From an uncultured Planctomycetia bacterium (lineage in GTDB: Bacteria > Omnitrophota > Gorgyraeia > 1-14-0-20-64-10), in NCBI GenBank assembly GCA_964597545.1, contig CAZQXN010000011.1, forward strand, positions 1 through 60,268: a DNA stretch of 60,268 nt, in the 5' to 3' direction. The position numbers and the translations under genes are program-made. Of the stretch, positions 4,258-39,860 are shown in pieces. The notes beneath the pieces are model-generated. The model saw only the letters and a list, made by a program, of their open reading frames with translations, did not search any database and was not told the origin of the DNA. Within the stretch, counting starts at the first letter, position 1, and every line of letters begins with the position of its first letter.

Positions 4258-4287
4258 GGCGGTTCAAATGGGCCGAATGAGTAAAGA

Positions 4288-4406
4288 TGGTGGGCCGACA
4301 AGGAGCCGATCGCGCTGCGCGCTCTCGGCACTTCCTTCGCCGACCACGCCTTTGGCGCGGTGCCCGGCTCGGTCGCTCAACCCTTCGGGTTCTCGTCCTT
4401 GTCCGG
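4288..4406 (-). ncRNA. Candidate structured ncRNA, possibly small (4.5S-type) SRP RNA; the 3' end duplicates the tRNA-Lys 3' end plus CCA
   Basis: On the reverse strand the 5' CCG(G)ACAAGG pairs with the 3' CCUUGUCGG. The interior GGUCGGCGAAGGAAGUGCC resembles E. coli 4.5S helix-8 GGUCCGGAAGGAAGCAGCC. Total length is about 115-120 nt, with GC-rich helices GAGCCG/CGGCUC and GGCAC/GUGCC. The match to the SRP symmetric loop is imperfect (AGUG instead of AGCA, and one extra loop nucleotide). The only ORFs here are Arg-rich overlapping artefacts. Confidence 0.4.
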
Positions 4407-4426
4407 AATAGCGCATTGAGTTTAGA

Positions 4427-4498
4427 TGGGCCGACAAGGACTCGAACCTTGCTCAACGGATTAAAAGTCCGCTGCTCTGCCAGATGAGCTATCGGCCC
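4427..4498 (-). tRNA. tRNA-Lys (anticodon UUU)
   Basis: Reverse complement GGGCCGA-TA-GCTC-ATCTGGCA-GAGC-A-GCGGA-CTTTTAA-TCCGT-TGAG-CAAGG-TTCGAGT-CCTTG-TCGGCCC-A forms a canonical cloverleaf with anticodon TTT. CCA is not encoded. Confidence 0.9.
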
Positions 4499-4568
4499 TT
4501 GGTGAGTATTCTAGCGGGTTTTACTGTTGGTTGCTATCTGTTGTTGCGGGTAGAGCAACGAAGGAATG

Positions 4569-7500
4569 TTACACAAACTGGCCTAGGTAATCCTGCACAA
4601 CCCCCAGAACCTCTCTTATCGCCTGAGGTAGGTCCCAGGGTTTCAAGCCTAGGCGGCGCAGGCCGTTTTGTCGGTTATCAATCTTCACCTGCTCAGAGTA
4701 CTCCCGGAGGAACTGCCTGGTGGCTCGCCGGCCGATGGCGTAGGGGCCTAAGGCCCCCCTCTGATCCAACGCAGCAAGTAACTCATCCAAAGCTTCTGCT
4801 TCCGGTCCATCGTAGTCCACCGCTACTGCCCAACCCCATCGAACAGCCAACGGCACGAGATCAAAGGTCTCTGCGTCAGTAAAAACGAGCACCTGGGCAA
4901 CGTTAACCACCGAGAGAACTGTAGAGAACCGCTCCAAAGCGGCCACTGCAAGATCACATGAGACGGCCAACTCTCGCTCCTCCAAACCAACATCCGGCAT
5001 GGAGGATCGACGCTTCGGTTTTCGCAGAACAGTAAATGGTTCGGCTAAGTGAAAGTTCAAGCTGGAGACACGCAATGAGTAAGGGAACGGGGCCGCTGAC
5101 ATAGGATCGAGGAGATGGTTGTTGGCTTGTTGGATTGCCTCAATTGTTTCTGTGGAATAGCGGGATTTGCTCAAGTAGTTTCGGTAGCCCCGCTTGCGCA
5201 GCTGCGCGGCAAGCTCAGGATCATGGAACACGATAACGAAATCGCCCGGTGCCAATCTTGGTTCAACTTGGGCCAAAAACTGCTGTATCGACTTGCCTTT
5301 CCCATATTCCCTCAAATTCTTAATGACCACGCTGGCCGAACCTTGCTGATGCGCTTCTTCTAGGAATTGATCGATTGCTGAAATCGCATGTCTGCTCGAA
5401 AATGCGTATGGAACCACTTGGATTCGTTTGAGTGCTGCGCCAACGCCTTTGATTTTCAGGCCCACATCAGCTTCAAGAGTGATCTCTGTCATGGTTAATC
5501 TATGCATGCCGGACAAACTCAGCTTTGGGTCAATTCCCAAAACCTCTTCCGCGACAAGGGCCGGTACAAAATCTGTCCCTATAGCAGGGTAAATGATGTG
5601 CCGTGCAACACCTATCGCCTGAAGGAACTTCCACTGGTTTTCGTATGTTCGATATCGCAGTTGAACCTTCTGTTTATCCGGACCTTTGATTTTCAAAACC
5701 CTTTCCCTGAATCGCGCTGCTTGGGTCAAAACCTTGTTAGCCCGCTTCGCGATTAGGTTTTCCTCCTGGCCGGCATGAGGTGACTCTAGCCGGATCAGAT
5801 AAACAGTATCCCTTTCAAGGGTGGCTAAGGACAAGCTCCCGGTCCCCGACTGGTGGGGAGAGCTAATGAGTGTCCGAACCGCCACGTAAGTAACCTCGCG
5901 CTGTCCTAGCGCCTTCAGTTGCCGAGCGCCTGGCAGCCTGGTGATTTCAAAGAAACCGTTCTCTTCCCAGTCGTAGGCGTCAATTTCCAGAATGTCTCCC
6001 ACCCGAAGGTCGCCTAGATCCTGCACGCGCCCTCTTCGGAGCGAAGCCAAGCGCGCAAACGGCATGTGCATGGCTCCTGCATCCAGAGTACTGAGCTGGT
6101 AGGTTGGGTAAACACCTTCGATTCTGCCCTGCCCTGCTGGGCGCAGCCGCAATGACCCGCTTCTTGCGGCAACATCCACAGAGGTAAGTCTTGCTATTTC
6201 AAAGATGCCTTCTCCCGGCAGGAAGAGGAAATCCCCTTCCTGCAAGGAGGTTTCCTTGCCAATCAACTGCCACCCTTCTTCTTGGCCGGCACGAGGAGCA
6301 TGTGTAAATTCCAGAATGAAAACCCGCGTTCCCAGAGCGCCGCTTGCCGAACGAAGAAAAGAAACGTTGTTTGCCCTTTCAATGGTCTTCTGGAACCGCA
6401 AGTAAAGGGTGCCTTTGCCAGCAACCTGGGGAAAGAATATTTCCTGCTGAAAGCGAGTCCGCATCTGCAGTTCCTGGCTCTGGGCAAACCGCTCAATCTC
6501 TGGAATGCCGGCCCATTCAGGAACTGCAAGCAAGATTTCCCCATTTTCTTTAAGCAGCGCCGGGGCCTTTCGCAAAATCTGCTCGATCATTGCCCTGCCC
6601 GTTGAACCACCATCGCTGGACATGTTGACGATGCCTGCTTGATCTGGCATGCGATCAATGTGGAATTTTCGCATAGCGTCTGTAAAGGGCACCGCTGCCG
6701 GATCCGAAACAATGAGGTCATATAGTTTTCTTTTGCGCTTCAAGGGCTCTGTGAGGTTGCCGCGGATAATCGAAACATTGTGGAGCTTGTTCCTTTTTAT
6801 GTTCTCTCGTCCCAGTCGCAGCAAATCGAGATTCAGCTCTACGCCATCGACCGAGCGCACTCGATCCGCTATGCCAACAGGAATCATCGCGCTCGCCGTC
6901 CCCAAATCAAGCACATCCCACTCTGGCTGCAGAAAACCCTCCTCCAGGAGGAATTCCAGCAATGCTTCGGAGTGCAGAAATGTCCTCTGACCAAAGAGTG
7001 TCTGAATCCACCGTCCCCCGCCAACGTGCAAAAGGAGATCGTCACCCTCTCTTCGCTCTTCCCAGAGGGGTGTCTCCTCCTGGCCGGCGGCGGAATCGAT
7101 TGCTTCCAACAGCTTATTGGCCTCGCCCCGCAGTGCACCAGCATGCCGCGACTTTTCTGCGTATGCGACTAAGATGCCATCCCTCATAATGAGATCAAGC
7201 TCTTCGGACACGCTTTGTTCGTCGACATGCTTGGCAATGATCGCAGCTGGCTTCTGCCAACCTCGCGCTTTGAGCCAGTCGAGCAGCTGGTAACCATTCA
7301 CGCGCGGCATGCCCAGATCAGAAATAACAGCGTCGATACCTTCTCCTTGAGCCTCAATCATATCTTGCGCAGCCTTTCCATCCTCCGCCGTGATCACCTT
7401 CGTACCTGGACGCAGCGCCCGTATCGCTTTAACGGTCGCAGCCAACTCATCGGAATCATCATCCACAACAAGGAAAGTTTGTTCCTCCTGGCCAGTACGG

Positions 7501-9080
7501 GGAATAGGTGCAAACTCCAGAACGAAACCCCGTGTCCCCAGAGCGCCATCTTCGGAACGAAGAAAAGGAACGTTGTTTGCCCTCTCAATGGTCTCTTGGA
7601 ATCGCAAGTAAAGAGCGCTCTTGTCAGCGTCCTGAGGAAGGAATACTTCTTGCCGAAAGCGAGTCCGCATCTGCATTCCCTGGCCCTGAGCATACCGCCC
7701 GACCTCTCGAATGCCGGCCCATTCAGGGACTGCAAGCAAGATTTTCCCATTTTCTTTAAGCAGCGCCGGAGCCTCTTGCAAGATCTGCTCAATCATGCTC
7801 CTACCATGCGGTCCGCCATCACTACCCATGTTGATGATGTCCGCCCGCTCCGGCATGCGATCGATGTGGAATCTTCGCATCTCGTCTGTAAAGGGTGCCG
7901 CTGCCGGATCCGAAACAATGAGGTCGTATCGTTTCTCTCGAGCTTTCAAGGGTGCTGTGAAATTCCCTCGAAAGATCTTAACGTTACCGAGACCATTCCT
8001 CTCCACGTTCTCTCGTCCCAAGCGAAGCAAATCAAGATTCAGCTCTACGCCATCGACCGAACGCACAAGATCAGCGATGCCAACGGGAATCGTCGCACCC
8101 CCCGTCCCCAGATCAAGGACATCCCACTCCTGCTGCAAAAACCCTGGCTTGCGGAGGAATCCCAACAGTATCTCGGAATACGGAGCCATCCTCTGATTTA
8201 GCACCGGCTGAATCCATCGACCCCCTCCAACGTGCAAAAGGAGATCGTCACCCTCTCTTCGCTCTTCCCAGAGGGGTGTCTCCTCCTGGCCGGTGGGAGT
8301 TTTAAGAATGAGCAGACTGGACCTGTCGAAAAAGAGAGGGGTTTCATCAGAGTAGAGCTCCAGCCATATCGGCTTGTCATCCTCATCCTTGACAAGATGA
8401 AAAGTGAATCTGTCCCATGCTCCAAAACGAAGTGGCTCATGAGACAGACCGAGTCGGGTACCGCTGTCAATACCTACGTTCCTTATATTCAGAGAAAGGC
8501 CCAAGACATCCTGCCCTAAGCTCAGTACCCATTTTTCTAAATCGGGGCCCTGATCAATCTCAAGCGCTCCCCGCTCAAGCAGATTGACCAACCGATTCCA
8601 TGGAATCCGTATTCCCTCCTTCCTTCCGCGCTTGGGCCCGTTGGCAACTTGAACATATCGAGCGTCATAATGGACGGCGGGGGTCAGCGCTGCCTCATCC
8701 ACATCTGTCAGCGCCGGCTCAACCTGCTCCCCAAGCTTCTCCAGCACCCAGTTGCCCCAGGCCCGCACATTATCCGCAGCCAAAAGACCTCGTATCTTAG
8801 GAATGGCCTTCCGGATTTCCTCGGGCGCGGTATCGGCAAGGGCACCCAACTGCCTCAGCGCTTCAATCTGAGCTCTTGGGTCTGCATCCAACTGGCTCAT
8901 CAGTCCTTGGACTTTCGCCTCCATCTCCTCCTGGCCGGTGGAGAGGGCTTCCTGAAGCTGGGCTTCGGCGTTGCTTTCAAGCCCGGCTTGGGCCTTGAGG
9001 GCCCATGCAGAGTGTGGCGCGGCTAGAGGAATGGCCAGCCAGAGAGCGATGCTGCGGATAGCTAACTGAAGGTGTTTCAT
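4569..9080 (-). CDS. 1503-aa mosaic protein: Sec-type signal peptide, HEAT-like N-region, two HemK/PrmC-like methyltransferase modules flanking a receiver (REC) domain, and a large uncharacterised C-terminal region
   Basis: One uninterrupted ORF. The N-terminus MKHLQLAIRSIALWLAIPLAAPHSAWA looks like a cleavable signal peptide. Two 266-aa modules carry VLDLGTGG/VLDLGTAS (SAM motif I) and DLIVSDPAA[AV]PF where NPPY would be. A REC-like segment has FLVVDDDSDE...AVISDLGMP. Six [T/A]GQEE motifs are present, five of them at module boundaries. Confidence 0.8.
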   Translation of the reverse strand: MKHLQLAIRSIALWLAIPLAAPHSAWALKAQAGLESNAEAQLQEALSTGQEEMEAKVQGLMSQLDADPRAQIEALRQLGALADTAPEEIRKAIPKIRGLLAADNVRAWGNWVLEKLGEQVEPALTDVDEAALTPAVHYDARYVQVANGPKRGRKEGIRIPWNRLVNLLERGALEIDQGPDLEKWVLSLGQDVLGLSLNIRNVGIDSGTRLGLSHEPLRFGAWDRFTFHLVKDEDDKPIWLELYSDETPLFFDRSSLLILKTPTGQEETPLWEERREGDDLLLHVGGGRWIQPVLNQRMAPYSEILLGFLRKPGFLQQEWDVLDLGTGGATIPVGIADLVRSVDGVELNLDLLRLGRENVERNGLGNVKIFRGNFTAPLKAREKRYDLIVSDPAAAPFTDEMRRFHIDRMPERADIINMGSDGGPHGRSMIEQILQEAPALLKENGKILLAVPEWAGIREVGRYAQGQGMQMRTRFRQEVFLPQDADKSALYLRFQETIERANNVPFLRSEDGALGTRGFVLEFAPIPRTGQEEQTFLVVDDDSDELAATVKAIRALRPGTKVITAEDGKAAQDMIEAQGEGIDAVISDLGMPRVNGYQLLDWLKARGWQKPAAIIAKHVDEQSVSEELDLIMRDGILVAYAEKSRHAGALRGEANKLLEAIDSAAGQEETPLWEERREGDDLLLHVGGGRWIQTLFGQRTFLHSEALLEFLLEEGFLQPEWDVLDLGTASAMIPVGIADRVRSVDGVELNLDLLRLGRENIKRNKLHNVSIIRGNLTEPLKRKRKLYDLIVSDPAAVPFTDAMRKFHIDRMPDQAGIVNMSSDGGSTGRAMIEQILRKAPALLKENGEILLAVPEWAGIPEIERFAQSQELQMRTRFQQEIFFPQVAGKGTLYLRFQKTIERANNVSFLRSASGALGTRVFILEFTHAPRAGQEEGWQLIGKETSLQEGDFLFLPGEGIFEIARLTSVDVAARSGSLRLRPAGQGRIEGVYPTYQLSTLDAGAMHMPFARLASLRRGRVQDLGDLRVGDILEIDAYDWEENGFFEITRLPGARQLKALGQREVTYVAVRTLISSPHQSGTGSLSLATLERDTVYLIRLESPHAGQEENLIAKRANKVLTQAARFRERVLKIKGPDKQKVQLRYRTYENQWKFLQAIGVARHIIYPAIGTDFVPALVAEEVLGIDPKLSLSGMHRLTMTEITLEADVGLKIKGVGAALKRIQVVPYAFSSRHAISAIDQFLEEAHQQGSASVVIKNLREYGKGKSIQQFLAQVEPRLAPGDFVIVFHDPELAAQLRKRGYRNYLSKSRYSTETIEAIQQANNHLLDPMSAAPFPYSLRVSSLNFHLAEPFTVLRKPKRRSSMPDVGLEERELAVSCDLAVAALERFSTVLSVVNVAQVLVFTDAETFDLVPLAVRWGWAVAVDYDGPEAEALDELLAALDQRGALGPYAIGRRATRQFLREYSEQVKIDNRQNGLRRLGLKPWDLPQAIREVLGVVQDYLGQFV
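6288..7085 (-). other. Methyltransferase-like module 2 of the mosaic protein (aa 666-931), paralogous to module 1
   Basis: Same length (266 aa) and same motif order as module 1. The first 28 residues are identical. Confidence 0.6.
7021..7087. repeat. 67-nt perfect direct repeat, copy A (start of module 2)
   Basis: ccaacgtgcaaaaggagatcgtcaccctctcttcgctcttcccagaggggtgtctcctcctggccgg is identical to 8227-8293. Confidence 0.9.
7086..7493 (-). other. Receiver (REC)-like domain of the mosaic protein (aa 530-665)
   Basis: GQEEQTFLVVDDDSDELAATV...IDAVISDLGMPRVNGYQLLDWLK has an acidic pocket (DDD) and a phospho-acceptor-like Asp in SDLGMP. Confidence 0.65.
7494..8291 (-). other. Methyltransferase-like module 1 of the mosaic protein (aa 264-529)
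   Basis: Starts GQEETPLWEERREGDDLLLHVGGGRWIQ. Contains VLDLGTGGATIPVGIA, DLIVSDPAAAPF, GSDGGPHGRSMIEQIL and LKENGKILLAVPEWAG, an arrangement parallel to PrmC/HemK motifs. Confidence 0.6.
8227..8293. repeat. 67-nt perfect direct repeat, copy B (start of module 1)
   Basis: Identical to 7021-7087. The flanking module sequence has diverged. Confidence 0.9.
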
Positions 9081-9169
9081 GGGATTACACGTTGATATTA
9101 CAAGCTTACACGAAGAAGGAAGATAGCGGCAAGTAAAATAACTAGCTATGGATTATGATTAATGAGTCC

Positions 9170-9226
9170 TTCGACAAGCTCAAGATGAACGGGGAACGTT
9201 CGTGGTTCGACAGGCCCACCATGAAC
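9170..9226. repeat. Two degenerate direct copies of a 21-nt unit (ttcgacaRGCYCAMSatgaac) in the frr / mosaic-gene intergenic region
   Basis: ttcgacaagctcaagatgaac (9170-9190) and ttcgacaggcccaccatgaac (9206-9226), offset by 36 nt. Confidence 0.6.
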
Positions 9227-9236
9227 AGTGGAGCGA

Positions 9237-9824
9237 TTAGACGGTTTTTAGATCCGCCTCTTTGGCTCCCAGAATCTCATCTACCTTCTTGTGGTAGCGG
9301 TCGGTGAGTTTCTGGAGATCGTCAAGGCCTTTGAACTTCTCGTCCTCGGGGACCGACTTGTCCTTGAAGAGCTTCTCAATCCCCTCCTTGGCGCTGTGCC
9401 GGATAGTGCGGATGGAGATGCGCCCCTCCTCTGCCTGCTTGTGGGCAAGTTTGGAGAGCTCCTCGCGCCGCTCGGTGGACAGCGGCGGAATGGAGATGCG
9501 AATGTGCTTGCCATCGTTCAAAGGGGCCAACCCCAGCTCTGATTTGGCGATCGCTCGCTCGATGTCCGGCAAGACATTGGGATCCCAGGGTTGGATCACC
9601 AAGAGCTTAGGATCCGGTGTGTTGATGCTGGCCAACTGCTTTAAGGGGGTGGGGGTGCCGTAGTACTCCACCTTGATGCCTTCCAGTAAAGCAGAGCTGG
9701 CACGGCCGGTCCGGATGGTGGCAAACTCGCGGCTGACGGCATCTAAGGCCTTGGCCATCTTGCCCTCGGTTTCCTTCAAGATTCCTGAGATGGTGGTCGC
9801 GGTGACTTTGGCTTCTTGGCTCAT
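9237..9824 (-). CDS. frr: Ribosome recycling factor
   Basis: 195 aa. MAKALDAVSREFATIRTGRAS...PPLSTERREEL...IRTIRHSAKE is the typical RRF pattern. Sits in the conserved frr-pyrH-tsf-rpsB neighbourhood. Confidence 0.93.
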   Translation of the reverse strand: MSQEAKVTATTISGILKETEGKMAKALDAVSREFATIRTGRASSALLEGIKVEYYGTPTPLKQLASINTPDPKLLVIQPWDPNVLPDIERAIAKSELGLAPLNDGKHIRISIPPLSTERREELSKLAHKQAEEGRISIRTIRHSAKEGIEKLFKDKSVPEDEKFKGLDDLQKLTDRYHKKVDEILGAKEADLKTV

Positions 9825-10590: not shown

Positions 10591-11139
10591 TCAGGGGGAG
10601 GCGCTAGAGGCCTCCTCTCCGAGGCTGAATCGGACGAAACGACGGATGCGCAGGTTCTCCTTGAGGCTTGCGACCGCCTCATGAAGAAGATCCTGGATGG
10701 TCTTGGAAGAATCCTTGACGTAAGGCTGGTTGAGGAGGACCTGCTCCTCGTGGTGCTTGCGCTCTTTCGCAGAGATGCTTGAAGGAATGTCATCGGCGCT
10801 GACGTAGCGGGGGTTCATGGAAGCCACCTGAAGGCAGATCTCATGGACAAAGGCCTTAAATTGATCGGTGCGAGCTACGAAGTCGGTCTCACAGTTGACC
10901 TCGACCAAAACACCGATCTTGCCGCCATGGATGTAGGAACCCACCGCACCTGCGCGGGTCTCTCGCAGAGCCTTTTCCTTGGCAACATCGGCTCCCTTGG
11001 CCCGCAGCGCCTTCAATGCCTGCTCCACTTGGCCGCCCGCTTCCTGGAGGGCCTTCTTGCACTCCATGATGCCGGCACCTGTGCGCTCCCGAAGATCCTT
11101 AATCTGCTCGGTGCCTACAGCGGTTGCTGCTTTAGGCAC
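10591..11139 (-). CDS. tsf: Elongation factor Ts (short form); likely GTG start overlapping the rpsB stop
   Basis: [16 protein letters not shown] and [19 protein letters not shown] are EF-Ts signatures. The longest ORF (to 11337) would overlap about 200 nt of rpsB. A GTG at 11139-11137 gives [21 protein letters not shown] and overlaps the rpsB stop by 8 nt. The start is not certain. Confidence 0.85.
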
Positions 11140-12211
11140 TGGGCGGTTCCTCTTTCTTCTTGTCCCCTTTGGGCTTCTTTTTGTCATCTTCCTTCTTCTG
11201 TTCCTTTGCTTTGGCAGCAGCGCGCTTTTTAAGTTCCTCTTCCTCTCCCTTGATGGCGGTCTTGAGCAGCGCCTCTGGAACAATCTCCTCCTCGGGCTCA
11301 GGAGGGGGAACGACTTCCTCTGTGACTGCCGCATCACTTTGAGGTGTTTCGGCTTCTGAAGCTATTTTGTCGGCGGCTGCTTTATCGGCGGCTGCCTGCT
11401 GTTCAGCAGCGACTTTATCGGCGGCGGCCTTCTCGGCTGCAGCCTTCTCGGCGGCGGCCTGCTGAGCGGCTTGGGCTGCGGCCTCTGCCTCAGCCTTCTT
11501 GCGCGCCTCTTCCTGGCCGGCCAGATAGAGTTGATACCCTTCGCGGATGCTGTCCGCCAACAAAGAGGTTACCAGTCCAATGGAGCGGATGGCGTCGTCG
11601 TTACCGGGAATAACGTGGGTAATGGGGTCGGGATTGCTGTTGGTGTCCACCAGGGCCACAACAGGAATCTCCAATCGAACCGCCTCTCGAATGGCGGTCT
11701 CTTCCCGCTTGGCATCCACCACAAAAACTGCCTTCGGCAGCTTAGGCATCTCAATGATACCGCCTAACACCTTCTCCAGACGAGCCAGCTCGCTGTCTGC
11801 CCGGGCCCTTTCCTTCTTGGTCATCCGCTCAAAGGTGCCGTCTTCGTGCCAGTTACGGATGGTTTTGAGACGCTCGATTGATTTGCGGATGGTCTGGAAG
11901 TTGGTGAGCAGCCCGCCCAGCCAACGAAGATTCACATAGAACTGGCCGCAGCGGGTGGCCTCTGCGGCAATGATCGGTTGGGCCTGTCGCTTAGTGCCCA
12001 CAAAAAGGATGGGACCACCCTCTGCGGCAATGGAGCGCAAAAAGGCCTTTGCCTCTTCAACGCCCTGGGCGGTTTTCTGGAGGTCCAAAATGTAGATGCC
12101 GTTCTTCTCCCCGAAGATGAAGCGTTTCATCTTGGGATTCCAACGGTGGGTTTGGTGCCCGAAGTGGACTCCAGCTTCCAGTAGGTCTTTAACGAGTGGT
12201 TCAATCATCAT
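11132..12211 (-). CDS. rpsB: 30S ribosomal protein S2 with a roughly 110-aa Ala/Lys/Glu-rich C-terminal extension
   Basis: [19 protein letters not shown] and the rest of a standard S2 core, followed by [39 protein letters not shown]...[16 protein letters not shown]. Confidence 0.93.
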
Positions 12212-12237
12212 GAATCGTTTAGTATACCAGAAAATCC

Positions 12238-14025
12238 TTAAGGCGCAACTTGTAATTCATAGAGCCGTCGATAGATAGGAGAACTGGCCAACAGTTCATC
12301 ATGCCTTCCGGTCTCAGCCACCCTGCCCTGATCCAGCACCACAATCCGGTCGGCCCTGCGGATGGTGGACAATCGGTGGGCAATCACAAAGGCGGTCCGA
12401 TTCTTCATCAGGCGATCCAGCGCTTCCTGGACCAAGGCCTCTGACTCGGAATCCAACTGGGAGGTGGCTTCATCCAAGATCAAGATGGGGGGATCTTTCA
12501 AGAGGGCGCGAGCAATGGAGAGGCGCTGACGCTCTCCCCCTGAAAGCTTAAAACCCTGCTCGCCCACCACGGTGTCATATCCAGAGGGTAACCGCTGGAT
12601 AAAGGGGTCTGCATTGGCCGCTTGGGCCGCCTTCTGCACGCGCTCGAGGCTTGCGTTCGGCTCACCAAAAGCGATGTTGGCGCGAACGGTATCGTGAAAC
12701 AGGAATGGGTCCTGAGTCACCAGGCCAATTTGGCGGCGCAGGGACTCCAGGGTGACGGATTTCAGATCCACCCCGTCGATGGTCACCCGCCCCTCAACAG
12801 GATCAAAAAAGCGCAGAACCAGATTCACCAGGGTGGTCTTGCCGGCGCCGCTCGCCCCAACCAAAGCGACCACTTCGCCTTTGCGAACCGTAAGATTGAC
12901 CCCATCCAACACAAACCGCTCGTCATACCGGAACCGCACATCTTTCAGGCAGACTTCGCTCTGAAACGGCGCCAACCGAGCCGCATCCGGGGCCTCCTCT
13001 GCTGAGGGGGTCGCCTCCAAGATGTCCACGACACGCTTGGCGGCGGCCAGCGCCTGCTGGTGGACGCCATAAAGGCGGCTGAGCTTCTTAAAGGGTGGGA
13101 CCAGAGAGACCAGGGCAGCCAAGAAGAAAACAAAGAAGCCGAGGGTCAGCTCCCCCTGGAGCACCGAACGGCCCCCCAGCTCCAGCACAAAGAGGATGCC
13201 AACGATACCGATGAGCTCAGTCACCGCTGCGAGCCCCTCCCTGCGCTTGACCGTGCGGATGTTGGCCTTGTAATACTGCTGATTGATGGAACCAAACCGC
13301 CCCGCTTCATGATCCTCGGCGGTAAAGGCCTTGATGATCCGAATCCCCTGGAGGGTCTCGATGATGCGGACGTTGAGGTCTGCCATCCGCTCCTGGACCA
13401 GATAGCCCAACTTTCTCAGCTTCTTGCCGATGCGGACAATCGGGAAGCTGATCGCCGGCAGCAGGATCAGGGTGATCGAAGCGAGCTTCCAATGAATGGA
13501 GAAGATGACCGCTGTAAAGATCAACACCTGCGAGGTTTGATAGACAAGATCGGCGATACCCTCGGTAATGGAGTTTTGCAGAACCGAGACATCGTGCGTG
13601 ATCCGGGAGGTCAATTCCCCTGTTCGCTCGCCGCTTAAGAAACCGACTGAAAGGCGGTGATAGTGGCGGTAGAGTCCGTTGCGGATGTCGCGCAAAAAGC
13701 GCAGGGCTGTGTCATTCATCAGAACCGTCTGGGTAAACTCAAAAAGGTTCTTTAAGATAAACAACACCACCACCACACCCACCACCCAGTGCAATTTAGA
13801 CAAGGGATTGAGCGCCAGGAAGCGTGAGGCAAAAGCCGCCACGGGTGCCGGCAGCCATGCCGGCAGGGTTGCAGACTGATCCAGCACCACCTGGTCCAGC
13901 AGGGGCACAATCATGCTCAACTGCACCCCCTTGAGCAGGCTCGAGATCACCATACAAACGGCAGCCAGCCCCAATAACAGCAGGTGGGGCTTTAGGTAAG
14001 GTATGAGCTTTAAGTAATTTCTCAT
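12238..14025 (-). CDS. msbA: ABC transporter, fused permease/ATPase, lipid A exporter MsbA-like
   Basis: Six-helix TMD plus NBD with Walker [10 protein letters not shown], signature LSGGERQR and Walker [10 protein letters not shown]. The start is set at [11 protein letters not shown] (14025), because the upstream 15 codons overlap the divergent gene region. Lies in a lipid A gene context. Confidence 0.8.
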
Positions 14026-29198: not shown

Positions 29199-32100
29199 TC
29201 ACCGCACCCGGATCTTGAAGCGCCGCTTGGGGGAAACGCCCCCTTTGGAATCGATCGCTTCCACAGACCCACTATAGAGCCCTCGTCTTGGGTAGCGGTA
29301 CCAGAAGTAGCAACGGGTCTTTGTCCTCTTCCTGCCGTCCCCAAAATCAAAGCGATAGCGGATCCGATCTCTATCGGGGTCGGTGGCCCAAACGTAGAAC
29401 AAGGCCCAGCGCCCCCACCAAGACCCACACCAGAAGTACCGGATGACCGGAGGGTCGTTGGCAGGGAGAACCCGGACGCTTCTGGTCTCTTCGGTCTTGC
29501 GGGTAAAGCCGTAGACCGATTCGGTCACGGTGAGCTTGACCGGGTAGGTTCCCGGAGAGGCATAGGCGTGGCGGGCAATCCGCCTGGTGGAGGTGATGCC
29601 GTCGCCGAAGTTCCACAGATAAGTGATCGGATCATCCTCGTCATCATAAGCAGATACCGCAAATACGCCCTCCTCCCCTTCGGCTACCTGCGCGGGCGTG
29701 CGGACCGAAGCGATCTGGGCCTGGTTGTTGAGGGCCCCGATAACCGTCAGAACATCCAAAGTAGTCAAGAACCTGTCACCGTTGACATCATAGTACGGAG
29801 GCGGTCCGAATTCGTTGGTAACACGCGGCAGTTTCCCTCCGGGTGGCAGGCGCCCGCCCAAAGAGGAGTTTACCGCGCTCACTAAGATGAGCACATCCAA
29901 GGTGGTCAGCATGCCGTTTCCGTTGATATCGAGAGGATTGTCCGGGTTCTGCCAGGGATGAGGGTTCTCGTAGATGACGAGGGTCTGATCTGCGCTGACA
30001 TCGCTGCGCGTTGTTGTGCCGCCGCTCGGCCAGTGGACAACAACGCTATCAGCCGTCAGATGGTTGCCGAGTCCGAAATGCATCGGGCTTTCCTCAAGAT
30101 CATCGCTGTTGCGCATCGTTTTGGCCTGCTCCAGGCCTTCAGCGGCAACAATGACTCGAGCCCCCAAACCGAAGCTATTGCTTGCATGTCCATCAAGTTG
30201 AATTTTCAGCCAGTGGTTTTTCGGATCTCCGAATATGTCGGAATAACGATTCTCATACAAGCTAAGATACCCCTCCATCTGGTGAGCGTTCAGGATGTCC
30301 AGATCACCGTCGTTATCATAGTCGGCGTAGGCGACAAAACTGCCGAAGTTGCTTCCGTAAGCTCCCGACTCAAATGTCCGGTCAGTAAAGGAAACCCCCT
30401 GCTCATTATGCAGGAGATAATTCCCCCCGACTCCTCCAGTCAAGTAGAGATCCAGAAACCCGTCGTTGTCGTAATCTAGAAATTGCGCTCCCTGGGGTCC
30501 GATCACCCCTAAACCCCCCATCTCAGAAAACATCCGGTCTGTATAATCCCAAAAGGACCCGTCACCACAGTTCTGGTAAAGGCGCGTAATGCGTTTAATC
30601 CGTTCAAAACCTTCGTACTTATATACCCATATACCCGCAAGGAAAAAATCTGGAAATCCATCGTTGTTATAATCCCCTACGGCAATTGCGCTAGGCCTAT
30701 TCATTTTAATTCCAAAGCAGACCTTTCGGAAACCTCCATCCCCCTGGTTCATATAAAATTGCAACCCATTCACCCCCGCGGGCGCCCAGGCACCAATGAT
30801 TAAATCCATAAAGCCATCCACATTGAAATCAATCACTTGAGTGTTGGCATAGGCATAACCCATTGCGCCCGAAAGACCAGCTCGGCTCGTTACGTCCTCG
30901 AAGCGATTGTTCCCCAAATTCCGCATCAGCGTAACAGGCGGAGCGGGCAACAGAATGTCCACATACCCATCGTTGTCATAGTCAAAAAACACTGGGGTTA
31001 GGGGACACTGTTCAAAAACCGGCAATCCCGACGATGCCGTGATGTCGGCGAAGCCCCCGCCGCCGCTGTTCCTTAAAAGGCGGGGTCTATCTTCATCAGA
31101 CGGAATGACCAAAAGATCGAGATCTCCGTCATTATCAATGTCCGCAGCCTTGCTCTGCCAAAACGGTCTGGGAAAAACAGATGTCGCTTCAAACTTCCCT
31201 GCCGCCGGGTTAAACAGGTAGCGATGCTCCGGGCTGGCGATCAGGTCAGCATACCCATCCTGATTGACGTCGGCAAAGGTGACACCCCAACTGCCGGAAT
31301 AGATGCTGTAGAGAAATGTGATGCCTTTCTCCTCCGCGACATCCTGAAAGAAAGTGGGTTGCAGACGAATAGCGCCCTCTGAGCGCAGAATCGTCTCGCC
31401 CTGAGAATCTGTCGCCCTCAGCGTGAATCTGATCTCGTCAGAGAATGCCGCACCGCTGTTTAATCGAATACGAAATGGATCGGATGCGTTCTCGGCGGTT
31501 TCACCGGAAGCGATTTCACCAAGCAGCCACTCGCCCTCCTCCACGGCAACTTCCGGATGCGTAGCTTCCAGGAAAACTTGAACGCCGTCAGCATCCTCAA
31601 AGATGCTGTGCAGGCGCACAATCAGTTCGAATGTCTCTCCCGGGAGCACCTCTCCCTTGAATCTGTACTCCTCCAGGACAAGCAGGGGCTGGCTCTCGAC
31701 CGCAAGGGCGCGCTCTATATTGAGCCGCCCGGCTCCCATGAACCCTGCGCAGTCGCCCAAAAGCGAATCGATCGAATCCGCTCCCAAGCGCAGGCGGGCA
31801 TGAATTTCATCCGGGGAGGCGCTGGGATACTGGCTCAAAAGGATGGCAGCGGCCCCAGCCACGTGAGGGCCGGCCATGGAGGTACCGGCCAAACGAGCGT
31901 AGCCGGGGGCGACAATAAGATCTTCCCGTTTAGCAATGATTTCCAAACTGCTTGGAATTGCAGAGAGGATGTTACGGATGTCGCGCCCACGGCCACTCCC
32001 GGGAGCCGAGACATCAACCGCCAGTCCAAAACTGGAGAAAAAAGAGCGCTGATCGTCCTGAGCGGTTGAACCAACCGTAATAACCGTTTCCAAGCTCGCA

Positions 32101-33470
32101 GGCACCGCTACCGAGATCGAAACGTCATCGTTACCGGCAGACGCCACAGAGGTCATCCCAAGCCCGTGGGCATACACGAAGGCATCCTGCAAGGTCCGGC
32201 TGACATCTACAATACCCCATGAGTTGTTGGAAACGCCGGCACCGTTCTCTGCCGCATACGCAATAGCAATGACGAGATCTGAGACCATCGCGGCAACAAA
32301 CTCTTGAACGGTTCCCTCAACAATACCTTCATCGCTGAACACCTTCAGCGGCATGATCTCGGCCCCCGGCGCCACGCCAACCACGCCAAGACCGTTGTTT
32401 CCCGTCGCCGCGATCGTGCCGGCCACATGGGTCCCATGGCCGATCTCCTCGTCCATCGGGTCATTATCATCAGCCCAGAAATTCCAACCCCGCACATCAT
32501 CAACGTAACCGTTGCCGTCGTTATCAACGCCGTCGCCGGGAATTTCCCCTGGATTGGTCCAGATGTTGGCTTCTAAATCTTCGTGCATGTAATCAACCCC
32601 AGTGTCAATAACTGCTACCGTGACACCCTCTCCTTGCGCCGTCTGCCAAGCCTCGGGAGCGCTCACCTTCAAAATTCCCCAAAGGTCCTCGTATTCCTGC
32701 CCCCAAGCCCCTTCGGTCCAGCTCCCGTCAGGGGCCGCATAGGTATCGTTGGGTGGTGTCTCCGGAAAGGCGTGCAATCGAGCGAGAAAGTCGGGCTCAG
32801 CGTACTCCACAGCCGGATCAGCGTTATAGCGGGCGATCATGGGGGTCAAGTCTTCTGACTCTTCAACCTGAATAACATAAACCTGATCCAAATTGGAAAA
32901 CGCCCCTTCGCCCTGCTCCTGAAGACGCTCTACCCGGCTCACCAGCTTCTCTTGAATCTCTACCTGGCGGTCCAAGAGCGCCTTCTCTCTGGCAACCCTG
33001 GCCTCATAATCCTTAGACTCTTCGGAATCCTTATCCTTCCACCAGTACCAACGGCCATGGGATTGTCCGCTCACCAGCTCCGCTCGCATACGGCGAAGAA
33101 CATTAAGTCGCCCTGAAAGAGAGAGACGTTCGGGCAGCAATCGATTGACCGCGGTTGCCCCAAACTGCGTATTGAGCTTCGATAAACTCGAGAGAGACTG
33201 CCCTTCTTTGAGTTTGACGATGATCCGGCCAGGGACAAAACGAGGCCTATCGTGAACCGCAACTGTCGCCTGCTCGTTGTTCGCCCCATCATCAGAGCGG
33301 AGAGGGTCCAGCGGTAGAATCCAAGGCACTCGCCTGTCTGTCTGGCCACCGGCATCAGAAGTATTCTGGTTTTCCTCTGAAGCGGCCAATAGTGCCGTTG
33401 GGGTTTGCAAAAGCGTAATAGAAATAGCCAAAATAATAGCTGCGGCTCTATGGATTGTTCTACTTCTCAT
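29199..33470 (-). CDS. 1423-aa secreted multidomain subtilisin (S8): propeptide, S8 catalytic domain, FG-GAP/VCBS repeats, two dockerin-like repeats, a PKD domain and a conserved C-terminal module
   Basis: Signal peptide MRSRTIHRAAAIILAISITLLQTPTALLAA. Catalytic triad contexts AVIDTGVDYMHEDL, GHGTHVAGTIAA and GTSMAGPHVAGAAAIL. Repeated DxNxDGxxD motifs (DVNQDGYADL, DIDNDGDLDL, DYDNDGYVDI). DINGNGMLTTLDVLILV and DVNGDRFLTTLDVLTVI are dockerin-like. WNFGDG...HAYASPGTYPVKLTV is PKD-like. Confidence 0.88.
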   Translation of the reverse strand: MRSRTIHRAAAIILAISITLLQTPTALLAASEENQNTSDAGGQTDRRVPWILPLDPLRSDDGANNEQATVAVHDRPRFVPGRIIVKLKEGQSLSSLSKLNTQFGATAVNRLLPERLSLSGRLNVLRRMRAELVSGQSHGRWYWWKDKDSEESKDYEARVAREKALLDRQVEIQEKLVSRVERLQEQGEGAFSNLDQVYVIQVEESEDLTPMIARYNADPAVEYAEPDFLARLHAFPETPPNDTYAAPDGSWTEGAWGQEYEDLWGILKVSAPEAWQTAQGEGVTVAVIDTGVDYMHEDLEANIWTNPGEIPGDGVDNDGNGYVDDVRGWNFWADDNDPMDEEIGHGTHVAGTIAATGNNGLGVVGVAPGAEIMPLKVFSDEGIVEGTVQEFVAAMVSDLVIAIAYAAENGAGVSNNSWGIVDVSRTLQDAFVYAHGLGMTSVASAGNDDVSISVAVPASLETVITVGSTAQDDQRSFFSSFGLAVDVSAPGSGRGRDIRNILSAIPSSLEIIAKREDLIVAPGYARLAGTSMAGPHVAGAAAILLSQYPSASPDEIHARLRLGADSIDSLLGDCAGFMGAGRLNIERALAVESQPLLVLEEYRFKGEVLPGETFELIVRLHSIFEDADGVQVFLEATHPEVAVEEGEWLLGEIASGETAENASDPFRIRLNSGAAFSDEIRFTLRATDSQGETILRSEGAIRLQPTFFQDVAEEKGITFLYSIYSGSWGVTFADVNQDGYADLIASPEHRYLFNPAAGKFEATSVFPRPFWQSKAADIDNDGDLDLLVIPSDEDRPRLLRNSGGGGFADITASSGLPVFEQCPLTPVFFDYDNDGYVDILLPAPPVTLMRNLGNNRFEDVTSRAGLSGAMGYAYANTQVIDFNVDGFMDLIIGAWAPAGVNGLQFYMNQGDGGFRKVCFGIKMNRPSAIAVGDYNNDGFPDFFLAGIWVYKYEGFERIKRITRLYQNCGDGSFWDYTDRMFSEMGGLGVIGPQGAQFLDYDNDGFLDLYLTGGVGGNYLLHNEQGVSFTDRTFESGAYGSNFGSFVAYADYDNDGDLDILNAHQMEGYLSLYENRYSDIFGDPKNHWLKIQLDGHASNSFGLGARVIVAAEGLEQAKTMRNSDDLEESPMHFGLGNHLTADSVVVHWPSGGTTTRSDVSADQTLVIYENPHPWQNPDNPLDINGNGMLTTLDVLILVSAVNSSLGGRLPPGGKLPRVTNEFGPPPYYDVNGDRFLTTLDVLTVIGALNNQAQIASVRTPAQVAEGEEGVFAVSAYDDEDDPITYLWNFGDGITSTRRIARHAYASPGTYPVKLTVTESVYGFTRKTEETRSVRVLPANDPPVIRYFWCGSWWGRWALFYVWATDPDRDRIRYRFDFGDGRKRTKTRCYFWYRYPRRGLYSGSVEAIDSKGGVSPKRRFKIRVR

Positions 33471-33550: not shown

Positions 33551-33573
33551 CTTCCTGCATTCTTGTCTGATCT

Positions 33574-33645
33574 GGCAACCCGGCTGGCCCTATGGGCCCC
33601 GTGGCTTTGCGGCCCCCGGTTTCCCGGGGTGTGCCTTTTACAGGT
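33574..33645 (-). promoter_or_regulatory. c-di-GMP-I (GEMM-I) riboswitch aptamer, leader of the 1423-aa S8 gene
   Basis: Reverse strand AAAAGGCACACC-CCGG-GAAA-CCGG-GGGCCGCAAAGCC-ACGGGGCCCAUAGGGCC-AGCCGGGUUGCC. Compare V. cholerae Vc2: GGGCAAACC-AUUC-GAAA-GAGU-GGGACGCAAAGCC-UCCGG...GCGGGGUUACC. Confidence 0.75.
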
Positions 33646-39750: not shown

Positions 39751-39788
39751 GAAATAAAAAATGCCCGGCTGCCCTTTGGCAGCCCGGC
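39751..39788 (-). terminator. Intrinsic terminator inside the 5' leader of the 1988-aa S8 gene; its 5' arm overlaps the aptamer 3' strand
   Basis: Reverse strand GCCGGGCUGCC-AAAG-GGCAGCCGGGC (one internal mismatch or bulge) followed by AUUUUUUAUUUC. Confidence 0.75.
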
Positions 39789-39860
39789 GGTCTCTAAGAT
39801 CACTGGATCCGTGGCGTTGCGTCCCGCCCTTGCAGGCGGTTTGCCTTTATCGGGGTACCG
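39778..39860 (-). promoter_or_regulatory. c-di-GMP-I (GEMM-I) riboswitch aptamer, leader of the 1988-aa S8 gene
   Basis: Reverse strand AUAAAGGCAAACC-GCCU-GCAA-GGGC-GGGACGCAACGCC-ACGGAUCC...GCCGGGCUGCC. The GGCAAACC / GNRA-capped hairpin / GGGACGCAA-GCC core matches the Vc2-type consensus almost position for position. Confidence 0.8.

Follow-up and report, generated by a model that had tools for sequence, protein, structure and literature searches.

The locus considered here raises the question of what a short peptide, GQEE, is doing at the boundaries between otherwise unrelated domains of a single large bacterial protein. The gene lies in a window of 60,268 nucleotides (the whole stretch of DNA that was analysed) and encodes, on the minus strand, an intact frame of 1503 aa with an ATG start and no internal stops, as an earlier note on this DNA had described it. 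GQEE occurs six times in the product, against 0.04 copies expected from its own composition, at the nucleotide positions which that note had given (copies starting at aa 49, 264, 530, 666, 932 and 1104). A six-frame scan of the window recovered only two further copies outside the gene, one in a 374-codon open frame (11135-12256) and the other in a 22-codon open frame. Two degenerate copies had been overlooked, namely AGLES at aa 32-36 and VGLEE at aa 1364-1368, so that the protein contains eight copies of the motif with a Q in six of them. None of these, nor any copy in the family described below, falls inside a Pfam domain match. The previous placement of the copies at module boundaries stands for those so described, but the setting apart of the copy at aa 49 does not, as it is likewise at a boundary and is the counterpart of a second leader motif carried by most family members. 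The features of the gene, in the order in which they are translated, and of the adjacent tRNA gene are as follows:

4569-9080, minus strand: whole gene for the 1503-aa mosaic protein, from the open reading frame listing (stop codon 4569-4571)
9000-9080, minus strand: Sec-type signal peptide, aa 1-27 (MKHLQLAIRSIALWLAIPLAAPHSAWA), n/h/c layout by inspection
8925-8999, minus strand: leader or pro-region, aa 28-52, with two motif copies
8973-8984, minus strand: leader motif 1, AGLES, G at aa 33, inside aa 28-52
8925-8936, minus strand: leader motif 2, TGQEE, inside aa 28-52
8292-8924, minus strand: N-module, aa 53-263, weak HEAT-like signal only
8280-8291, minus strand: junction motif GQEE, aa 264-267, composition count; upstream breakpoint of internal duplication
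7494-8279, minus strand: methyltransferase module 1, aa 268-529, MTS/HemK-like, motif I GTGG, SDPAAAPF replacing NPPY
7482-7493, minus strand: junction motif GQEE, aa 530-533, composition count; downstream breakpoint of internal duplication
7086-7481, minus strand: receiver (CheY-like) module, aa 534-665, PF00072 Response_reg
7074-7085, minus strand: junction motif GQEE, aa 666-669, composition count
6288-7073, minus strand: methyltransferase module 2, aa 670-931, with 75% identity to module 1, degenerate motif I GTAS
6276-6287, minus strand: junction motif GQEE, aa 932-935, composition count; codons GGC CAA GAA GAA
5772-6275, minus strand: orphan module E, aa 936-1103, relatives not found
5760-5771, minus strand: junction motif GQEE, aa 1104-1107, composition count
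4989-5759, minus strand: module X, aa 1108-1364, divergent class I SAM-methyltransferase fold
4977-4988, minus strand: junction motif GLEE, the family's usual form, aa 1365-1368, start of the tail domain
4572-4976, minus strand: family C-terminal (tail) domain, aa 1369-1503, four-stranded Rossmann-like alpha/beta domain
4427-4498, minus strand: tRNA-Lys(UUU), ARAGORN and Rfam, directly downstream of the gene

Genomic setting

The gene is located in a strain-specific segment (4258-9238) between frr and archease, its neighbors in the window being frr, tRNA-Lys, archease and RtcB. The tRNA-Lys gene falls inside this segment, and its 14-nt 3' end occurs again at 4291-4304. In relatives with 87-93% nucleotide identity the gene is absent from the locus, which instead carries a type I restriction-modification system or an IS110 element. 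The whole segment is missing from these related strains, and the gene is accordingly an insertion confined to its strain, at a chromosomal site of variable content. No second assembly of the gene exists because the related strains lack it. An assembly artefact was rejected, as the internal repeats are only 80% identical and would not be collapsed, and as independent contigs carry family members with the same leader-to-tail layout.

Domain architecture of the 1503-aa protein

Sequence profile analysis of the N-module recovered only a HEAT_2 match below the Pfam cutoff (E = 0.039) and nothing significant in NCBIfam, and neither collection identified relatives for it. The two methyltransferase modules belong to an internal duplication (nt 785-1599 and 1991-2805 of the ORF, 80.5% identity), whose ends coincide with the GQEE motif on both sides. 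Because the motif pairs 264/666 and 530/932 fall within this one duplication, the six GQEE copies represent four independent occurrences. Pfam matched MTS/Methyltransf_31 twice, with the best stretches at 302-450 and ~700-795, and also Methyltransf_25. The best PDB match of both modules is 1DUS (MJ0882), with whose TNPP the sequences SDPAAAPF of module 1 and SDPAAVPF of module 2 align, in agreement with the earlier description of two MTS/HemK-like folds whose NPPY is replaced by DPAA.

Like HemK/PrmC and MTS enzymes, both modules possess the class I fold and an acidic motif II, and their best matches are to PADLOC mad2, PRK14968, HemK family models and MJ0882. The glycine-rich SAM-binding motif I had been read as VLDLGTGG in both folds; this is correct for module 1, but module 2 reads VLDLGTAS, having lost two glycines, and retains the motif only partly. 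In contrast to HemK/PrmC, the catalytic motif IV, (D/N)PP(Y/F), is absent from both modules, and all NCBIfam HemK-type matches are below their cutoffs, with the PrmC equivalog TIGR03534 reaching 88.6 bits against 199.1 and the HemK subfamily TIGR00536 93.1 bits against 115.5, each summed over both modules. Comparison of module 2 with module 1 gives a dN/dS of 0.26 (dS 0.58), so that both are under purifying selection. Among the best hits, with E = 1.9e-39 over both copies, was mad2, the methylase of the MADS defence system, but a MADS system was rejected, as only positions 270-445 of the 492-position profile were matched, twice, and the other mad genes are not nearby. Searches of PHROGs gave nothing specific for the protein.

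The CheY-like receiver that had been placed between the two methyltransferase folds is confirmed by a Response_reg match at aa 537-634 (46.7 bits against a Pfam cutoff of 30.2). In the alignment with CheY it retains the acidic DD pair, the phospho-acceptor Asp (D57 equivalent) and the conserved Lys (K109 equivalent), with strand beta-1 beginning within three residues after the motif. Unlike usual receivers it lacks the conserved Thr/Ser87 (T87 equivalent), sits, behind an export signal, between two methyltransferase modules and has no cognate kinase nearby.

The remainder, previously characterized as about 570 aa with no recognizable motif, can in fact be divided into three units. Module E had no match in Pfam, NCBIfam or an exhaustive search of 1.84 billion representatives. 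Module X was modelled by AlphaFold2 with a pLDDT of 85, and Foldseek searches of the PDB with this model recovered methyltransferases (E down to 3e-5, probability 1.0, with TM-scores of only ~0.4), suggesting a divergent class I methyltransferase fold. It is common to eight other family proteins in the exhaustive search and is flanked by the motif on both sides in all seven aligned relatives; its tail, running into the next motif, is predicted to be disordered (pLDDT below 50; one case). The third unit is the C-terminal domain, for which AlphaFold2 (pLDDT 90.5) predicts a first helix that begins at the motif and packs on the domain core with high confidence. In both modelled modules the motif stands at a helix start (aa 2 and aa 4). 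The tail domain has no PDB neighbor by fold (best Foldseek E 0.03) or by sequence profile, and no match in Pfam or NCBIfam.

A rare family of cassette proteins with a common junction motif

An exhaustive HMMER profile search of the 1.84 billion representatives recovered ~40 distant relatives of the 1503-aa protein. The family is visible only in this search: word-indexed searches of 5.8 billion proteins returned the protein itself and one receiver match for the whole protein, no match for methyltransferase module 1 and seven short fragments for the tail-domain profile. Similarly, a whole-protein scan of genome contigs found one irrelevant methyltransferase, a metagenome scan five loci and a viral scan none. 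About 30 of the 41 exhaustive-search matches cover the tail domain alone, always at their own C-terminus, the region aa ~1355-1503 matching ~30 proteins with E from 3e-40 to 5e-4. In an alignment of 22 sequences the identity of this domain to the 1503-aa protein is 33-56%; the G, E and E at its start are nearly invariant, and the nearly invariant residues of the domain include no Cys, His or Ser. Some lineages have additional GLEE-like sequences within the tail domain, and eight or nine members comprise the leader and module X without it.

At the N-terminus, inspection bears out the proposed Sec-type leader ending AWA/LK (the slash marks the end of the signal peptide), with the typical n/h/c layout. 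A signal-peptide c-region of the form L-P-x-P-A-x-A/L-R is conserved in ~20 members, and most members then carry two motif copies ~10-20 aa apart. The sequence AAPHSAWA/LK of the 1503-aa protein, followed by AGLES and then TGQEE, corresponds to this leader (P-x-P-A-x-A/L-[RK] and two motifs). The signal peptides of the two subtilases encoded in the window lack the family c-region. Six members (P0009, P0011, P0014, P0030, P0031 and P0042) have no signal peptide and nevertheless keep the motif before the tail domain.

Across the 41 family proteins GLEE occurs 82 times against 1.6 expected. The residue preceding the Gly is Ala, Thr, Ser, Val or Gly, and a Pro is common at -3, giving a family form P-x-[AST]-G-[L/M/Q/A/V]-E-E that is found on the flanks of every module, within otherwise variable linkers; the 1503-aa protein conforms to this pattern, with its eight copies at module boundaries. 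In the relatives position 3 is occupied by Leu (82), Met (9), Ala (6) or Val (5) and never by Gln, which is present in 6/8 copies in the 1503-aa protein against 0/~110 elsewhere (p = 8e-9). This residue tends to be uniform within a protein: four copies in P0023 read M, the closely related P0016 uses L, and P0020 has A or V. The earlier note had regarded conservation in homologues as a test of the motif; GQEE as such is missing from the relatives, but its GLEE equivalent is present, and hence the motif is not a lineage accident and only the Gln is lineage-specific. As judged from the family sequences, one junction motif is shared throughout the family, and GQEE is the form it takes in this lineage rather than a PrmC-type mimic of GGQ.

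Cutting the sequences at the motif yields modules that recur across proteins in differing orders, although 57/129 are singletons. The freely shuffled modules include GNAT, PdxA, ROK, GH77 and WD40 domains as well as orphans, and most members have no methyltransferase. In the single-module member P0010 the motif stands at the extreme C-terminus ('GLEEAV' followed by the stop), with a convergent gene next. Examination of the codons indicates that the peptide itself, and not only its DNA, is conserved, because the copy at aa 932-935 has synonymous codons at three positions, and the junction Gln has been retained through a duplication of age dS 0.58; the GLEE at aa 1365-1368 is encoded by GGT TTG GAG GAG. 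At the same time, the junction codons are more uniform than the codon usage of the genes predicts (0/5000 simulations), with GCC in 19/22 Ala and GAG in 25/28 first Glu codons. Other family genes have toxin-antitoxin and housekeeping genes as neighbors; all that recurs among the six loci compared is two small unknown ORFs and the toxin-antitoxin cassettes (Fic/RHH, ParE), and no protease or other partner gene was conserved beside them in these loci.

In conclusion, these comparisons show a family architecture comprising a conserved, predicted Sec-type leader with two motifs, variable and unrelated globular modules and usually a ~140-aa Rossmann-like tail, and the 1503-aa protein is a member of this rare, so far unannotated and apparently undescribed family of cassette proteins. 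The earlier impression that no described family has such a layout holds up, as the architecture is unmatched by Pfam, NCBIfam, PADLOC and PHROG models and a search of the literature was empty, nothing relevant being found on AGLEE or GLEE motifs either.

Comparison with known modular and processed proteins

The gingipain/adhesin polyproteins of Porphyromonas, MARTX effector arrays and Kex2-processed repeat proteins are precedents for such an organization. The family resembles gingipains and MARTX toxins in its N-terminal export signal, strain-variable string of unrelated modules, short conserved junction sequence and conserved terminal domain, with cleavage being only proposed here. However, Pfam and NCBIfam searches recovered neither the T9SS-type beta-sandwich tail Por_Secre_tail (TIGR04183/TIGR04131) nor peptidase C25, which speaks against a T9SS cargo of the gingipain type, and neither the glycine-rich A/B/C repeats nor the cysteine protease domain of MARTX. 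Furthermore, MARTX toxins have a C-terminal T1SS signal in contrast to the N-terminal Sec-type leader seen here, the tail is a Rossmann-like alpha/beta domain, and the modules are housekeeping-type enzymes rather than recognized toxins. The VENN motif of CdiA and the PxxxxDPxGL motif of Rhs proteins are demarcation motifs where variable cassettes are swapped by recombination, the latter also being a cleavage site; in both, a single motif stands between the constant body and a single variable toxin tip, with an immunity gene following. The present family is similar in having a short peptide at the point of cassette exchange and strain-specific genes in variable islands, but differs in its up to eight motif copies among many modules and in its constant part being C-terminal. 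No RHS/YD or filamentous haemagglutinin repeats were detected with Pfam and no immunity-like neighbor in the examined loci, which does not favor a polymorphic toxin.

The cyanobactin precursor PatE has several cassettes, each behind a G(L/V)E(A/P)S recognition sequence read by a dedicated protease, and the precursor cores are flanked by GLEAS, after which the subtilase PatA cuts (PMC4282754). The likeness lies in the G-L-E-x-x before each cassette; however, the cyanobactin cores have 6-8 residues, as against folded domains of 130-900 aa here, and no AYDG-type C-terminal signal is present. The resemblance is best treated as a lead and not as homology. The subtilases of the window were considered as PatA-like readers of the motif and rejected, being generic S8, deseasin-like enzymes.

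Potential functions of the junction motif

Our best guess, with a probability of roughly 0.4, is that the motif serves another factor as the cue for processing or sorting a secreted mosaic pre-protein. It would then be a short linear signal recognized, after Sec export and removal of the signal peptide, at each junction by a factor encoded elsewhere in the genome. This factor would most likely be an endoprotease, which would cut off the short pro-region and free the modules from one another, as happens with a polyprotein; a partner that docks with or sorts the individual modules is the alternative. The earlier suggestion of a 'polyprotein-like' architecture is to this extent a live reading. 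The Gln flavor might represent co-adaptation of the motif with its reader in this lineage, and the same motif, marking the breakpoints of module duplication and exchange, could also serve as a cassette demarcation site. Recognition by such a factor is favored by the persistence of the motif where no hinge is needed, namely in the leader before any module and at the C-terminus of P0010. It is also favored by the signs of selection on the peptide from its synonymous codons and long-retained Gln, the concerted change of position 3 within a protein, and a leader that is family-specific, unlike the signal peptides of the subtilases. Likewise favorable are the exclusion of the motif from Pfam matches together with its bounding of recurring modules, its linker context between the disordered tail of module X and the first helix of the tail domain, and the accessory, fast-changing nature of the genes, seen in the strain-specific locus, toxin-antitoxin surroundings and numerous singleton modules. 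A bolder version, which we consider rather unlikely, would have an undescribed post-export pathway in which a dedicated leader and a junction-reading enzyme release or sort cytoplasm-type enzymes (methyltransferases, kinases, acetyltransferases and glycoside hydrolases) outside the cell, in a mixture peculiar to each strain, as effectors on other cells, with the motif doubling as a recombination handle.

Several observations weaken the idea of a recognized signal, and some of them also speak for its main rival, a possible but doubtful one, under which the protein is one giant multidomain chain, there is no reader, and the motif is a benign linker end and helix N-cap that has become an idiom of cassette recombination. 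Here the Gly would provide the cap, followed by a helix-forming residue and two Glu, and the motif would persist as modules move with their flanks, the shared DNA RCC GGG CTG GAG GAG acting as microhomology. Consistent with this, the duplication breakpoints lie on the motif on both sides, modules common to several proteins end at it, and the junction codons are over-uniform, all of which fits DNA-level copying without a reader. In addition, both AlphaFold2 models have a helix beginning at the motif, position 3 is limited to the good helix formers L, M, Q and A, which would also suit a purely structural helix start, and members without a signal peptide keep the motif, which there opens the first helix of the tail domain itself. 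The failure to find a partner gene in six loci counts in the same direction, while the receiver and the SAM-dependent enzymes, having no obvious role outside the cytoplasm, weigh against processing after export. However, linker idioms normally drift, whereas here five to seven residues are kept among proteins with only 35-55% identity in their common domain, and the synonymous changes point to selection on the peptide. A hinge also has nothing to join in the leader or at the terminal 'GLEEAV', and in the receiver the motif precedes a strand and is thus not always a helix start. Finally, four independent junctions share one L-to-Q change that has lasted over a dS of 0.58, which needs selection or repeated gene conversion. 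Quite unlikely, in our estimate, is a multivalent docking role, in which the uncut junctions bind a partner domain, possibly the family's own tail, and so build a surface layer, scaffold or condensate that concentrates enzymes. Many motif copies alongside one conserved, non-catalytic-looking tail domain per protein would suit this, as would the predicted packing of the motif-initiated helix on the tail core, copies at both termini as tags, and the GLEE-like extras within some tail domains; yet eight or nine members with leader and module X have no such tail domain, and there is no sign of a compartment or layer in the host organisms.

Two further proposals appear very improbable. The earlier note had speculated that the junction Gln mimics the GGQ of release factors and is N5-methylated or processed by the protein's own PrmC-like modules, for which one might cite the G-Q at six junctions, the sub-threshold HemK/PrmC-type matches and the purifying selection on both modules. 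This is already largely refuted by the homologues, as the Gln is unique to the 1503-aa protein, the ~40 relatives having Leu, Met, Ala or Val at this position, and as the motif flanks GNAT, PdxA, ROK, GH77, WD40 and orphan modules in proteins devoid of a methyltransferase, which most relatives lack. Moreover, the sequence is GQEE and not GGQ, the PrmC equivalog score is far below its cutoff, and NPPY is replaced by DPAA in both copies, the second of which has also lost two motif I glycines. No more credible is a signal at the RNA level, whereby the junction codons, mostly NNG GAG GAR and hence spelling a Shine-Dalgarno-like GGAGG, would pause ribosomes between modules or start internal translation. 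Such a signal could account for a codon uniformity beyond the need of the peptide, but Shine-Dalgarno-like sequences precede only 11/38 genes of the window, the present gene not among them, GGAGG is not avoided in coding sequence (2.2 per kb), and the junctions are not followed at any workable distance by a start codon in frame. The fifth copy (CAA GAA GAA) lacks GGAGG and still keeps the peptide, and the conserved P-x-A-G upstream would be left unexplained; on the codon, start-codon and GGAGG-frequency evidence both pausing and internal initiation were rejected.

Implications

If the motif is a processing or sorting signal, the family would define a new bacterial way to make and deliver numerous enzymes from a single gene. 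Viral polyproteins, Kex2-processed fungal precursors and MARTX toxins would be comparable, but the leader, the recognition peptide and the tail domain would be peculiar to this family, and its seven-residue tag might be exploitable for engineering. If the motif does no more than act as a hinge, nature would still have supplied an unusually clean case of domain shuffling at a defined 'splice' sequence, useful for studies of multidomain assembly. Either way, a conserved domain without structural relatives, a leader type and a methyltransferase-fold module, which now appear as ~40 clusters of 'hypothetical proteins', can be annotated, and the Leu-to-Gln switch in this lineage provides a direct test case for the co-evolution of the motif with a potential reader.

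Organization of the window protein

The gene under study encodes an uninterrupted ORF of 1503 amino acids (4569-9080, minus strand), in which the GQEE motif begins at residues 49, 264, 530, 666, 932 and 1104; both the intact frame and the nucleotide coordinates of all six copies are exactly as the earlier note gave them. Only 0.04 copies would be expected from the protein's own composition, and just two more GQEE occur in all six frames of the window outside it. Nucleotide self-comparison recovered one internal duplication (ORF nucleotides 785-1599 versus 1991-2805, 80.5% identity), whose ends coincide with the motif at both sides. Hence, the six copies amount to four independent occurrences, which is still far more than chance.

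Pfam searches bear out the domains previously proposed between the motif copies, namely two methyltransferases (MTS/Methyltransf_31) and a single receiver (Response_reg). The remaining stretch of about 570 residues had been described as devoid of recognizable motifs; this holds for an orphan module (residues 936-1103), but the rest comprises a third methyltransferase-fold module (module X) and the tail domain of the family described below. In NCBIfam the methyltransferase modules give exclusively sub-threshold matches to HemK, PrmC and PRK14968, and among solved structures the closest in sequence is MJ0882 (1DUS), which has TNPP at the position of their SDPA. Motif I is GTGG in the first copy and GTAS in the second. 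The two copies are 75% identical at the protein level, with a dN/dS of 0.26 and a dS of 0.58, indicating an old duplication after which purifying selection has acted on both. In the receiver, the acidic pair is retained together with the phospho-acceptor Asp and the conserved Lys, whereas the equivalent of Thr87 is not.

The best library match of the modules at window positions 6288-8279 is PADLOC mad2 (E = 1.9e-39, in two stretches), whose profile is matched at positions 270-445 of 492. Mad2 is the methylase, an N6-methylase, of the MADS defence system (bioRxiv 10.1101/2023.03.30.534895). No other mad genes are found near the window gene.

A family of junction-cassette proteins

Word-indexed searches with the window protein and with its methyltransferase module 1 recovered no relatives. 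HMMER, run exhaustively over 1.84 billion representatives with residues 936-1503 as query, returned 41 proteins. About 30 of these, ranging from 107 to 3520 amino acids, match only the last ~140 residues of the window protein, always at their own C-terminus, while eight others match residues 1127-1365. Judged by sequence, the window protein belongs to a family whose members follow a common plan. Approximately 20 members begin with a classical signal peptide with a strikingly conserved c-region (L-P-x-P-A-x-A|L-R), followed by [ST]-G-L-E-[ED]-x-L and, 10-20 residues further on, by A-G-[LMA]-E-E; the corresponding leader of the window protein reads AAPHSAWA|LK, AGLES and TGQEE. Modules are invariably joined through [AST]-G-L-E-E, commonly with Pro or Ala before it. 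Over 31,091 residues of family proteins there are 82 copies of GLEE where 1.6 would be expected, together with nine copies of GMEE, six of GAEE and five of GVEE.

All six GQEE copies of the family lie in the window protein, where Gln occupies position 3 of the motif in 6 of 8 copies, as against none of ~110 elsewhere (p = 8e-9). The earlier note had proposed that the motif be regarded as a lineage-specific accident if homologues lacked it; they do lack GQEE itself, but carry the equivalent GLEE. The junction motif is thus a property of the family, with the Gln alone being lineage-specific. Position 3 also shifts in concert within a protein, being Q in the window protein and A or V in the relative P0020, while P0023 has M and its close relative P0016 has L.

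When all members were cut at the motif and segments of at least 40 residues counted, 129 segments were obtained: 45 are the C-terminal domain, nine are module X (residues 1104-1364 of the window protein) and 57 are singletons. Several further modules are common to different proteins, in differing orders. Recognizable modules include GNAT, PdxA, ROK, ARMT1-like phosphatase, GH77 4-alpha-glucanotransferase, WD40 propellers and methyltransferases; most have no match to any Pfam family. In module X, variable-length linkers separate the conserved core from the motif on both sides. Its predicted structure (pLDDT 85, with the segment running into the next motif below 50) resembles class I SAM methyltransferases (Foldseek E ~3e-5, probability 1.0), with TM-scores of only ~0.4. 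The C-terminal domain, modelled from a 22-sequence alignment, is predicted to adopt a four-stranded Rossmann-like alpha/beta fold (pLDDT 90.5), whose first helix begins at the junction motif. Neither fold comparison (best E 0.03) nor profile search reveals a neighbour in the PDB, and the alignment contains no conserved Cys, His or Ser suggestive of a protease.

Some proteins with the leader and module X (P0027, P0028 and P0029) end instead in another shared C-terminal module, which finishes with A-A-G-L-E-E and 8-10 further residues; thus the family extends beyond the proteins that share the tail domain. The largest member, P0013 (3520 aa; contig L002, 366-10928), has an internally duplicated module of ~700-900 residues that is also present in P0023. 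It is directly followed by a gene for a LexA-type repressor (S24, Ala|Gly-cleaving; L002 10973-11638), which is probably a coincidence.

Codon usage at the junctions

The junction codons vary synonymously (GGG/GGC/GGA, CTG/TTG, GAG/GAA; the fifth window copy is GGC CAA GAA GAA), pointing to selection on the peptide. Across the window gene and the loci L002, L008, L009, L010 and L011, these codons (consensus RCC GGG CTG GAG GAG) still vary far less than would be expected from the codon usage of each gene, with 0 of 5000 simulations as extreme; for example, GCC encodes 19 of 22 Ala and GAG 25 of 28 first Glu residues. This uniformity may reflect a degree of junction copying at the level of DNA, or else some form of selection. 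The junction codons often spell GGAGG. A role in ribosome pausing or internal initiation was discounted, as Shine-Dalgarno-like sequences precede only 11 of the 38 window genes, GGAGG turns up commonly inside genes, at 2.2 per kb, and downstream of the junctions there are no start codons.

Genomic setting

The window derives from the chromosome of a diderm bacterium and includes Lpx genes, BamA, Skp, a T2SS/T4P-like cluster, ClpX and an intein-bearing DnaB. Its other features include:

29199-33470: subtilase ORF, 1423 aa, with FG-GAP/VCBS and dockerin-like parts
33570-33644 (minus strand): c-di-GMP-I-GGC riboswitch aptamer (RF03167), 67.7 bits
33736-39702: subtilase ORF, 1988 aa, with repeated cadherin/PKD-like units
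39774-39854 (minus strand): c-di-GMP-I-GGC riboswitch aptamer (RF03167), 59.2 bits
43300-44667 (minus strand): single 455-aa ORF fusing LpxC and FabZ/FabA-like domains
48812-51400 (minus strand): DnaB replicative helicase, its intein with a LAGLIDADG homing-endonuclease domain (Pfam Intein_splicing, LAGLIDADG_3)

Each aptamer lies just upstream of one of the giant subtilase ORFs, which are predicted to be secreted and adjoin the T2SS/T4P-like cluster; the LpxC fusion sits within an lpxI-lpxC/fabZ-lpxD-skp-bamA cluster.

Contigs of closely related strains (L012-L018; 87-93% nucleotide identity) share synteny with the window as far as the frr stop (9239) and again from the archease start (4257), and lack positions 4258-9238. 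After frr they carry a 74-aa gene and type I restriction-modification genes (HsdM, HsdS), and one has an IS110 transposase before archease. From these comparisons the interval between frr and archease would appear to be a hotspot of accessory and defence genes. The strain-unique segment holds the window gene and a tRNA-Lys(UUU), the 3'-terminal 14 nt of which (TCCTTGTCGGCCCA, minus strand) are exactly repeated 122 nt downstream (4427-4440 and 4291-4304). This att-like direct repeat may be the scar of an integrative element.

Other family members lie among toxin-antitoxin cassettes. Three family genes from related organisms (L008 56-8137, L010 163-6919 and L011 1-8959) are surrounded by the same kinds of cassettes: RHH-Fic, a small antitoxin with ParE, PhD-ParE and RHH-PIN. 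L008 and L011 additionally have in common two small uncharacterized ORFs, which precede the family gene by between a few hundred bases and ~1.3 kb. Comparison of the neighborhoods of members at six loci revealed no conserved partner gene.

Potential functions of the junction motif

The earlier suggestion that the PrmC-like modules act on the junction Gln residues does not survive these comparisons: relatives do not conserve Gln at that position, the motif also flanks modules in proteins without a methyltransferase, and the methyltransferase modules cannot be assigned to PrmC, scoring below its cutoff and lacking the catalytic NPPY. The motif sits in variable linkers, the single modelled one being disordered. 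It is also found where no two domains need joining, namely in the leader and at the C-terminus of the single-module member P0010, which ends in GLEEAV and a stop, with a convergent gene next. Its conservation in linkers, these leader and C-terminal copies, the family-specific leader and the concerted changes at position 3 favor, at a probability of roughly 0.4, a short linear signal that is read by another factor, most likely as a processing site. Gingipain polyproteins, MARTX arrays and Kex2-processed precursors are precedents, as are the VENN and DPxGL demarcation motifs of polymorphic toxins.

Alternatively, nothing might read the motif, which would then be an idiom of hinges and helix caps that is passed on as cassettes are shuffled. 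Such an idiom would accord with the duplication breakpoints on the motif, the uniform junction codons, the helix-forming residues at position 3, the existence of members without a signal peptide and the lack of a partner gene; we regard it as the main rival, only somewhat less likely than a signal that is read. Third, the motif may serve in docking, perhaps with the tail domain as partner, but this is rather unlikely.

Under the processing-site reading, the mosaic pre-protein would be exported by Sec via its predicted leader, whereupon another factor would recognize the junction motif and processing there would split it into separate modules. The motif would also mark where cassettes get duplicated and exchanged. 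Cyanobactin precursors, in which PatA cuts after the GLEAS flanking the cores (PMC4282754), offer a precedent for such junction processing.

The leader, junction motif, module X and tail domain have no Pfam, NCBIfam, PADLOC or PHROG model, and the motif found no mention in the literature searched. In conclusion, these proteins are of a known kind, that of strain-variable mosaic secreted proteins with demarcation motifs, while their leader, motif, tail domain and housekeeping-type modules were not previously known. There is a modest but real chance that the family represents a new processing and sorting pathway.
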